Below, in pieces: positions 3,001 to 6,000 of a DNA stretch of 11,611 nucleotides. Source of the stretch: a virus. Taxonomy: Duplodnaviria; Heunggongvirae; Uroviricota; Caudoviricetes. Within the stretch, counting starts at the first letter, position 1; each line of letters begins with the position of its first letter. The position numbers are program-made. Location of the stretch: IMG/VR virus record IMGVR_UViG_2872185964_000001; one strand, 5' to 3'.

Positions 3001-6000
3001 GCATGACAAGGTCATCGGGCATTATCTGAACATAAAACACTATCAGTGGATTTGCCCCTATATTTCCAGACATCTGTTATCACTTAACCCATTACAAGCC
3101 CGCTGCCGCAGATATTCCCGTGGCGAGCGATAACCCAGCGCACTATGCGGATGCCATTCGTTATAATGTTCGAACGCCTCTGCAAGGTTCTTTGCTGCCG
3201 TTAACCCGTCTGGTTTGGGCATGATACTGATGTAGTCACGCTTTATCGTTTTCACGAAGCTCTCTGCTATTCCGTTACTCTCCGGACTCCGCACCGCCGT
3301 GTTCTTCGGTTCAAGTCCCAACATCCGGGCGAACTGGCGTGTTTCATTAGCCCGGTAGCATGAACCATTATCCGTCAGCCACTCCACTGGAGACGACGGA
3401 AGATCGTTGCCGAAGCGGCGTTCCACCGCACCCAGCATGACGTCCTGTACTGTTTCACTGTTGAAGCCGCCGGTAGTCACCGCCCAGTGCAGTGCCTCAC
3501 GATCACAGCAGTCCAGCGCGAACGTGACACGCAGTCTCTCTCCGTTATCACAGCAGAACTCGAACCCGTCAGAGCACCATCGCTGATTGCTTTCTTTCAC
3601 GGCCACTCTGCCTGTATGTGCCCGTTTCGATGGCGGTACAGCAGGTTTTCGCTCAAGCAACAGCGCATTCTGGCGCATGATCCGGTAAACACGTTTGGCA
3701 TTGATCGCAGGCATACCATCAAGTTCTGCCTGTCTGCGAAGCAGCGCCCATACCCGACGATAACCATACGTGGGCAGCTCTCCGATAACATGGTGTATAC
3801 GGAGAAGCACATCCGTATCATCAGTGTGACGACTGCGGCGGCCATCCATCCAGTCATCGGTTCGTCTGAGAATGACGTGCAACTGCGCATGCGACACCCG
3901 GAGACAACGGCTGACTAAGCTTACTCCCCATCCCCGGGCAATAAGGGCGCGTGCGCTATCCACTTTTTTGCCCGTCCATATTCAACGGCTTCTTTGAGGA
4001 GTTCATTTTCCATCGTTTTCTTACCGAGCAGGCGCTGGAGTTCTTTAATCTGCTTCATGGCGGCAGCAAGTTCAGAGGCAGGAACAACCTGTTCTCCGGC
4101 GGCCACAGCAGTAAGACTTCCTTCCTGGTATTGCTTACGCCAGAGAAATAACTGGCTGGCTGCTACACCATGTTGCCGGGCAACGAGGGAGACCGTCATC
4201 CCCGGTTCAAAGCTCTGCTGAACAATTGCGATCTTTTCCTGTGTGGTACGCCGTCTGCGTTTCTCCGGCCCTAAGACATCAATCATCTGTACTCCAATGA
4301 CTAGTCTAAAAACTAGTATTAAGACTATCACTTATTTAAGTGATACTGGTTGTCTGGAGATTCAGGGGGCCAGTCTAATCAGTAAGTTGGAGTCATTACC
4401 CGCCGACTGCCTGGAATTTATCTGGTCGTTACCCGAAAATTCTGTTGACCTGATAGTCACGGACCCGCCGTACTTTAAAGTGAAGCCTGAGGGCTGGGAT
4501 AACCAGTGGAAGGGCGACGATGATTACCTGAAGTGGCTGGACCAGTGTCTGGCGCAGTTCTGGCGGGTGCTGAAACCTGCCGGAAGTCTTTACCTGTTCT
4601 GTGGTCATCGCCTGGCATCTGATATCGAAATCATGATGCGTGAACGCTTCAGTGTGCTGAACCATATTATCTGGGCGAAGCCGTCCGGACGCTGGAACGG
4701 ATGCAACAAGGAAAGCCTGCGGGCGTATTTCCCCGCCACAGAGCGCATTCTGTTCGCGGAACATTATCAGGGGCCGTATCGTCCGAAAGATGCCGGGTAT
4801 GCGGCGAAGGGCAGTGCACTGAAACAGCATGTGATGGCCCCGCTGATTTCTTACTTTCGTGATGCGCGAGCTGCCCTGGGGATAACGGCAAAACAGATTG
4901 CAGATGCCACAGGAAAGAAAAACATGGTGTCGCACTGGTTCAGTGCCAGTCAGTGGCAGTTGCCGAATGAAAGCGATTATCTGAAATTACAGGCGCTGTT
5001 TGCCCGGGTGGCAGAAGAGAAGCATCGGCGTGGTGAACTGGAAAAGCTCCACCACCAGCTGGTGGATACGTATACCTCACTGAACCGGCAGTATGCGGAG
5101 CTGCTGAGTGAATATAAACATCTGCGGCGGTATTTTGGCGTGACGGTGCAGGTGCCGTATACCGATGTGTGGACGCATAAACCGGTGCAGTTCTATCCCG
5201 GGAAACATCCGTGCGAAAAACCGGCAGAAATGCTGCAGCAGATAATCAGCGCTAGCAGTCGTCCGGGTGACCTGATTGCAGATTTTTTCATGGGGTCGGG
5301 TTCGACAGTGAAAGCGGCACTGGCGCTCGGGCGTCGTGCAATTGGCGTTGAGCTGGAGACTGAACGTTTTGAGCAGACGGTTCGGGAAGTACAGGATTTA
5401 GTCAGCCAGAACGGATGATATTGAAGAATTAATTACGAGTCGTTATTATGCGGCTCCCGGCCCTTTAGCTCAGTGGTGAGAGCGAGCGACTCATAATCGC
5501 CAGGTCGCTGGTTCAAATCCAGCAAGGGCCACCATCACATACCGCCATTAGCTCATCAGGAAAGAGCGCCAGCCTTCGAAGCTGGCTGCGCGGGGTTCAA
5601 GTCCCCGATGGCGGTCCATTATCTGCATCATGCGTTGTTAGCTCAGCCGGACAGAGCAATTGCCTTCTAAGCAATCGGTCACTGGTTCGAATCCAGTACA
5701 ACGCGCCACACTTATTTTCCCTGGCTCGCTTTTGCGGGCTTTTTTTTTAAATGTCTCACAATTCAGACGGTTGACTGTTGTCTGGTTTGCGGGGAGTTTG
5801 TTAAAAGAAACTGGCATGGTGAATCCCCCTGTGCGGAGGGGCAATCAGCGAGTAGGTATATGGGATAATCGCGGATTCAGGTGCTGGTACTGAATTCACC
5901 GGGAGGCACCCGGCACCATGCAATGGCACATAGCGCCACTCTCCAGCCCCTCTCCGGAGGGGCTTTCTTGTGGGCAAAAAAAGCCCGCGCTGGGAGACGC

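Follow-up and report, generated by a model that had tools for sequence, protein, structure and literature searches.

What are three tightly spaced tRNA genes doing in a piece of phage DNA, and does the middle one, with the anticodon TCG, serve the reading of rare codons? The question is raised by IMG/VR virus record IMGVR_UViG_2872185964_000001, whose full stretch of 11,611 nucleotides (nt) is referred to here as the window. The original prediction, made from the sequence, described a phage-borne trio with the anticodons CAT, TCG, and TCT at positions 5459–5708 as a rare-codon set for AUA, CGA, and AGA, acting in late-gene or cargo expression. An ARAGORN scan of the whole window found exactly three tRNA genes, all on the + strand. 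ARAGORN and Rfam reproduced the predicted spans and anticodons exactly and confirmed the cloverleaves, and the scores of all three genes were far above the gathering score of Rfam family RF00005 (29 bits; Table 1). The genes are separated by spacers of 7 nt (ileZ/argN) and 13 nt (argN/argO). Judged by its sequence, the trio is the known ileZ-argN-argO operon of lambda-like Escherichia coli/Shigella prophages, a family that includes the Shiga toxin 2 (Stx2) phages.

This identification is based on a comparison of a 381-nt query spanning the trio with phage records and 5426 complete E. coli genomes. The same block was found in 289 phage records, in agreement with the prediction that the trio is phage-borne, and 258 of these records matched over at least 80% of the query with 90–96% identity. 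Most of them belong to Stx2-converting phages (93–96% identity to the Stx2 phage records), and several annotate ileZ, argN, and argO. The RefSeq annotation of phage 933W lists, in order, a putative tRNA promoter (pT), ileZ (tRNA-Ile), argN (tRNA-Arg, with the note 'CGG?'), argO (tRNA-Arg, with the note 'AGG?'), and a terminator upstream of stx2A. Since the 933W record annotates the same genes in the same order, the trio is a long-annotated, named element; Plunkett et al. reportedly described ileZ-argN-argO of 933W in 1999 and named the three genes. The trio is carried by 3061 of the 5426 complete E. coli genomes, at up to 13 places per genome, and the best chromosomal copy is 99.0% identical to the query. 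Being present in more than half of the genomes, it is an ordinary feature. The trio itself therefore adds nothing new, as it is a textbook, routinely annotated accessory of Stx-type prophages. A tRNA gene 'ileX' adjoining stx2 was reported by Schmidt et al. in 1997, as cited in PMC3636060.

Table 1. Features of the window, with the tRNA operon first and its surroundings below
Feature	Position	Strand	Details
ileZ, tRNA-Ile2 type	5459–5534	+	Anticodon CAT; A73; CCA encoded; ARAGORN; RF00005 72.5 bits, E = 1e-14
argN, tRNA-Arg(UCG)	5542–5618	+	C1-G72, A20, C35, G36, U73; CCA encoded; RF00005 58.0 bits, E = 1e-10
argO, tRNA-Arg(UCU)	5632–5708	+	G73; CCA encoded; RF00005 70.1 bits, E = 5e-14
Predicted sigma-70-type promoter	5421–5449	+	TTGAAG-17 nt-TATTAT; ends 9 nt before ileZ
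Predicted intrinsic terminator	5723–5748	+	GGCTCGC-TTTT-GCGGGCT and T run; 3' of argO
DNA methylase	4360–5418		Upstream of the trio
STnc100 small RNA	5785–5975	+	Rfam, 139 bits; begins 37 nt after the trio terminator
Terminator-like hairpin	6004–5983	-	At the place where AsxR lies in 933W
DUF1737 gene	6198–6506		SASA esterase fragment next
IS1, IS600, further IS3-family element, second IS1 at the window end	2546–4331, 7609–8765, 10914–11611		

The trio looks like a self-contained transcription unit with a predicted promoter and a predicted terminator. The promoter is the sole promoter-like site within positions 4200–6300, and pT is annotated at the equivalent position in phages 06-3462 and 933W. 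Among 41 loci with the full trio, the -10 sequence TTATTAT and the TTG of the -35 element are at least 90% conserved, including in loci with unrelated upstream DNA. The terminator hairpin and its T run are conserved to the same degree across these loci, with a variable loop, and the annotated terminator of 933W lies at the corresponding place, upstream of stx. As these signals are maintained among loci that share no DNA further upstream, the operon would be an autonomous unit that is able to outlive its prophage, as in the window.

The gene with the anticodon CAT had been predicted to resemble tRNA-Ile2, and the comparison with K-12 bears this out. ileZ is identical to K-12 ileX at 68 of 76 positions (89%) and has the same anticodon loop. 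It possesses the Ile determinants A73, C4-G69, C29-G41, A37, and A38 (list taken from PMC9976931) and resembles ileX rather than the Met tRNAs; its homologues are annotated as tRNA-Ile in RefSeq E. coli genomes. Among the 72 ileZ-bearing loci (IMG/VR contigs and fetched records), 65 copies have an identical ileZ sequence. The anticodon stem of ileZ has at its top a non-pair, A27.C43 (positions 5485 and 5501), at the place of G27.U43 in ileX. The non-pair is kept in 65 of the 72 copies and is thus tolerated or selected.

The seven Arg tRNA genes of K-12 that we fetched make up the complete K-12 set. They are annotated with the anticodons ACG (four genes), CCG, UCU, and CCU, so that a UCG isoacceptor is indeed lacking, and each has either A or G as its discriminator. 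The U73 of argN is thus both real and atypical for Arg: T73 follows the acceptor stem CCGCCAT/ATGGCGG and precedes the encoded CCA, and it is present in all 42 full-length argN copies from other loci. None of the seven genes is more than 67% identical to argN. Its minimum-free-energy structure is a cloverleaf, and in the window copy all 21 pairs are Watson-Crick and the core positions are canonical. argO is 73% identical to K-12 argU and has the same anticodon loop (CTTCTAA). The determinants of arginyl-tRNA synthetase (ArgRS) at positions 20, 35, and 36 (A20, C35, and G36/U36), listed as Arg identity elements in PMC9976931, are present in both argN (D loop ATCAGGAAA, anticodon TCG) and argO (D loop AGCCGGACA, anticodon TCT), and A20 is kept in 42 of 42 argN copies. 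A purine discriminator (A73 or G73) is found in argO and not in argN. In addition to the purines, U73 is among the bacterial Arg determinants in Table 1 of PMC9976931, and the discriminator of argN is therefore compatible with charging. From these elements, charging of argN by ArgRS is plausible. Our literature search found no relevant tRNA-seq evidence on Arg(UCG) in enterohaemorrhagic E. coli.

Many prophages integrate into tRNA genes, for example argU and argW, and the trio might accordingly be what remains of attachment sites that were duplicated when a phage integrated into host tRNA genes. However, all three genes are of full length, the trio is internal to the phage, with the methylase on one side and the STnc100/lysis region on the other, and not at a prophage end, and the integrase of the remnant in the window adjoins potC. 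In addition, the identity of argN and argO to the K-12 Arg tRNAs does not exceed 73%. We rejected this origin on both position and sequence, and its probability is practically nil.

In order to relate the operon to codon demand, codons were counted in the annotated genes of two trio carriers, PhiR49_2 and 933W, and of the tRNA-less phage lambda, with a 50-kb stretch of K-12 as the reference. Relative to this K-12 sample, the frequencies in PhiR49_2, 933W, and lambda were 2.7-, 3.1-, and 3.4-fold for AUA, 10.8-, 14.0-, and 15.7-fold for AGA, 9.4-, 10.7-, and 9.0-fold for AGG, 2.6-, 2.6-, and 2.9-fold for CGA, and 2.2-, 1.9-, and 2.0-fold for CGG, respectively. In all three phages the early genes are more enriched than the late genes. 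stx2AB contains 36.9 AUA and 14.8 AGA per 1000 codons, and the few genes remaining in the window have the same codon bias. The demand is strong for AUA and AGR and weak for CGA/CGG. Since lambda shows a like enrichment and the early genes exceed the late genes, the demand is a general lambdoid property that marks neither trio carriers nor late genes, and the codon-supply explanation does not separate the tRNA-carrying lambdoid phages from lambda. The predicted supply of rare-codon tRNAs for late genes or cargo was thus only partly supported. Its part concerning AUA and AGA/AGG stands, as the linked genes are rich in these codons and stx2AB is rich in AUA and AGA. Its part concerning late genes does not, and in the window itself no stx, no cargo gene, and no late region are left to which the trio could be linked. 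Rare-codon reading is reasonable for ileZ and argO, although unspecific to trio carriers, and weak for the UCG tRNA.

With these restrictions, we consider it likely that the operon is a tRNA unit of lambda-like prophages that supplies scarce tRNAs to AT-rich acquired genes. Transcription of the operon would start at pT, supplemented in intact phages by read-through from further upstream, and the transcript would be cut into the three tRNAs. C34 of the ileZ product would be lysidinylated by TilS, allowing it to read AUA, while the argO product would read AGA (and AGG) and the argN product CGA/CGG. The additional tRNAs, which are scarce in E. coli, would serve AT-rich acquired genes including the phage early genes and stx, and the benefit would fall both in the lysogen and during phage growth.

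Several observations weigh against such a role. A test for codon co-adaptation specific to trio carriers found none, as lambda, which has no tRNA genes, is equally or more enriched. The enrichment of CGA/CGG in the trio phages is only about 2- to 2.6-fold, and the codon count of stx2AB showed no significant increase of CGA. argN has C2-G71 and G3-C70 in place of the listed G2-C71 and C3-G70, and these replacements together with U73 may make its charging inefficient. Among the 42 full-length TCG copies of argN, 26 are fully canonical; the other 16 have either mispairs (A.A or A.C) or losses at T54, A58, or G18G19. At many other loci, the argN slot is occupied by 66-nt deletion forms, an argN/argO chimera, or an 80-nt allele that is not called as a tRNA. 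In the chimera, found at two loci (L044; L-numbers denote the individual loci compared, which are genome-derived or IMG/VR viral contigs), the 5' half of argN continues as the 3' half of argO, the junction being at CCTTC-AAGC, a loop sequence common to both. The chimera evidently arose when recombination between these two tRNA-Arg genes caused a deletion.

Conservation differs greatly among the three genes. The nucleotide diversity (pi), computed over the 41 full trios, was 0.002 for ileZ, 0.012 for argO, and 0.069 for argN. The flanking non-coding DNA gave values of 0.15–0.25 (terminator region, 0.15; spacer between argN and argO, 0.20; 60 nt upstream, containing the promoter region, 0.25). 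In the 72 ileZ loci, the 44 argN copies represent 28 distinct sequences. An 80–81-nt allele of the argN slot (L031, L011, L076, L095, L099, and L087) occurs in at least 1232 complete E. coli genomes, being at least 99% identical in 1227 of them, and an anticodon arm close to that of the window argN occurs in 1001 E. coli genomes. This allele has the acceptor and D arm of argN, an anticodon arm with the sequence AGACGACACGATAACAGGGTTGTTGGT, and a T loop in which TTC is often missing; it received no ARAGORN call and has no RefSeq feature. From the contrast in pi and the decay of the argN slot, ileZ and argO behave as selected genes and argN as a weakly constrained one. The data indicate that ileZ and argO are under strong purifying selection and that argN, with much weaker constraint and frequent loss, ranks lowest of the three in conservation and is degraded most often. 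The UCG tRNA that the original prediction had singled out is thus the weakly constrained, frequently lost member of the trio.

These results raise the possibility that argN is a largely dispensable passenger, namely a drifting duplicate of a phage tRNA-Arg scaffold with little contribution to decoding, and that ileZ and argO are the selected functions. The pi of argN is about 35-fold that of ileZ and about 6-fold that of argO, only 26 of its 42 full-length copies are fully canonical, and truncated, chimeric, and replaced forms exist. The unannotated allele is found in 1232 E. coli genomes versus 1001 with an argN-like arm, and 'tRNA-pseudo-tRNA-Arg' variants of the trio have been reported (PMC13641118). 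The atypical U73 and the weak demand for CGA/CGG point in the same direction. However, the variability of argN is still only about one third of that of the adjacent spacer (0.069 versus 0.20), and A20, the anticodon, and U73 are retained in 42 of 42 copies. Its stems stay paired through compensatory changes, and the copy in the window is flawless. We therefore regard the passenger explanation as possible but rather unlikely.

The scaffold of argN (C1-G72, D loop ATCRGGA, encoded CCA, and mostly U73) recurs with other anticodon arms in slot 2, the position of argN. Some members have canonical 7-nt loops with TTT (CCTTTAA or ACTTTAA, both having C33 for U33) or TCT (L013, L074, L078, L081, L084, L108, L033, L120, L211; L057; L144). 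Whole anticodon arms are swapped on the scaffold with compensatory stem changes. For 32 distinct members of 77 nt, cloverleaf pairing amounts to 97.3%, and five of the pairs show compensatory changes. In forms of 73–75 nt, the 'anticodon' loop has only 5–6 nt, and the usual array is Ile2(CAT)-X-Thr(TGT)-Gly(TCC). Loci of this type were found in genomes of several Enterobacterales genera, among them Dryocola, Enterobacter, Pseudescherichia, Buttiauxella, Rosenbergiella, Salmonella, and others (L130, L137, L143, L153, L158, L169, L178, L196, L221, L226, L228, and L245) and in IMG/VR viral contigs (L036, L054, and L067). When folded, these short genes give cloverleaves with a loop of 6 nt. A comparison of 13 distinct sequences of this kind revealed 12 different loops, whereas the anticodon stem did not vary in its 3' half and few positions were variable in the other arms; the mean pairwise difference per site is 0.47 in the loops versus 0.08 in the arms. 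In two Enterobacter loci (L137 and L196), the upstream ileZ-like gene is degraded, with its acceptor ends kept and no ARAGORN call, while the short-loop scaffold gene and Thr(TGT) are intact. A scan of genome contigs with a 16-nt scaffold pattern found a scaffold tRNA in 18 of 120 loci, the matches being mostly unrelated and from distant phyla, and the scan is therefore no reliable taxonomic census. No prior description of short-anticodon-loop tRNA-like prophage genes was found in the literature searched.

One reading of this family is that argN is a canonical-looking allele of a slot-2 tRNA-like cassette and not primarily a rare-codon decoder, which we consider distinctly improbable. The anticodon arm would then turn over rapidly on a conserved scaffold, the 5–6-nt loops would be non-decoding, and the 80–81-nt forms would have an extended arm. 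If this were true, diversification that centres on the loop while the scaffold is conserved would suggest a selection that has nothing to do with codon supply, one option being a decoy or replacement for nucleases attacking the anticodon arm. The hypervariable slot-2 family might bear on the current debate whether phage tRNAs serve translation or counter-defence.

The main rival explanation, a view that has recently become popular, concerns the trio as a whole: phage tRNAs may replace or supplement host tRNAs destroyed by tRNA-cleaving toxins or defence systems, such as colicin D for tRNA-Arg and PARIS, OLD, or PrrC for other tRNAs, and not compensate for codon usage. The general hypothesis has been published (PMC10264068). 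AriB of PARIS targets Lys(UUU), Thr(UGU), and Asn(GUU) (PMC12409363), and P2 OLD depletes Thr(UGU), Gly(UCC), fMet, Val(UAC), and Pro(UGG) (bioRxiv 10.64898/2026.07.10.737580). Alternative arrays on the ileZ backbone carry Lys(TTT)-Thr(TGT)-Gly(TCC), which overlaps these target sets. Among the genes of the trio, the anticodon stems of argO and argN differ from those of the host Arg tRNAs, colicin D targets tRNA-Arg (PMC10264068 and PMC12409363), and codon enrichment does not tell trio carriers from lambda. On the other hand, our literature search found no nuclease targeting Ile2(CAU) or Arg(UCU), and ileZ and argO have the anticodon loops of their host counterparts, ileX and argU, without any change, so that the loop mutations predicted by an anti-defence model are lacking. 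The anti-defence explanation fits the alternative arrays on the ileZ backbone better than the trio, for which it seems improbable. The supply of scarce tRNAs, above all by ileZ and argO, is the reading that we prefer.

The window is a prophage remnant beside potC, riddled with insertion sequence (IS) elements and without early and late regions, and the locus is an stx-less 'empty site'. The order is potC, a lambda-type integrase, IS1, IS600, the DNA methylase, the trio, STnc100, DUF1737, and the SASA esterase fragment, followed by another IS3-family element, an unrelated AlpA/Bro-N block, and IS1 again. The IS elements replace the early and late prophage regions; Q was lost with the early region, the place of which is taken by IS1 and IS600. 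What survives in the remnant is the integrase, the methylase, the tRNA operon, STnc100, DUF1737, and the esterase fragment. The same arrangement is present in NCBI chromosome CP026872.1, which also has a split potD-like gene and other split genes. This chromosome was identified by an exact-protein look-up of the integrase; that of the methylase gave no record. The split genes and the load of IS1 and IS600 suggest a Shigella source. Intact relatives have Q, the methylase, the trio, and the late genes in this order, and the trio lies between the Q/methylase region and the insertion site of stx2AB. The trio of the window occupies the same position, from Q/methylase to stx/STnc100/nanS-p/lysis, with the order as in the relatives. 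In 933W, stx2AB lies between the trio terminator and STnc100, and STnc100 is located just after stxB2, next to AsxR; in PhiR49_2, STnc100 follows the trio, as in the window. The fact that STnc100 stands directly after the trio in the window and after stxB2 in 933W shows that the window locus represents the stx2 insertion site without stx.

Compared with the chromosomal genes of K-12, ileZ corresponds to ileX/ileY, whose Ile2 products read AUA via lysidine 34. ileZ and ileX share A73, C4-G69, C5-G68, and C29-G41, but the C6-G67 pair of ileX is replaced by U6-A67 in ileZ, a compensatory change, and one D-loop site has U in ileX and G in ileZ, which is phage-carried. argO has G73, A20, and the anticodon loop in common with K-12 argU, whereas it differs from argU in the acceptor, anticodon, and T stems alike. 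The gene order, anticodons, spacing, pT, and terminator of the window trio are also those of 933W and of its Stx and non-Stx lambdoid relatives. The window differs from 933W-type phages in having a full-length methylase gene upstream of the trio, of which they have only a fragment, and from 933W in having no stx2AB between the terminator and STnc100, in the replacement of the Q/early region by IS1 and IS600, and in the loss of the late region, which is cut off by another IS element. The tRNA genes found downstream of Q in SfI, Sf6, ST64T, and phage 21 are of other species, Asn(GUU) and Thr(UGU), but they share with the trio the genomic slot, from Q to the lysis genes, and the codon-supply rationale (PMC3636060).

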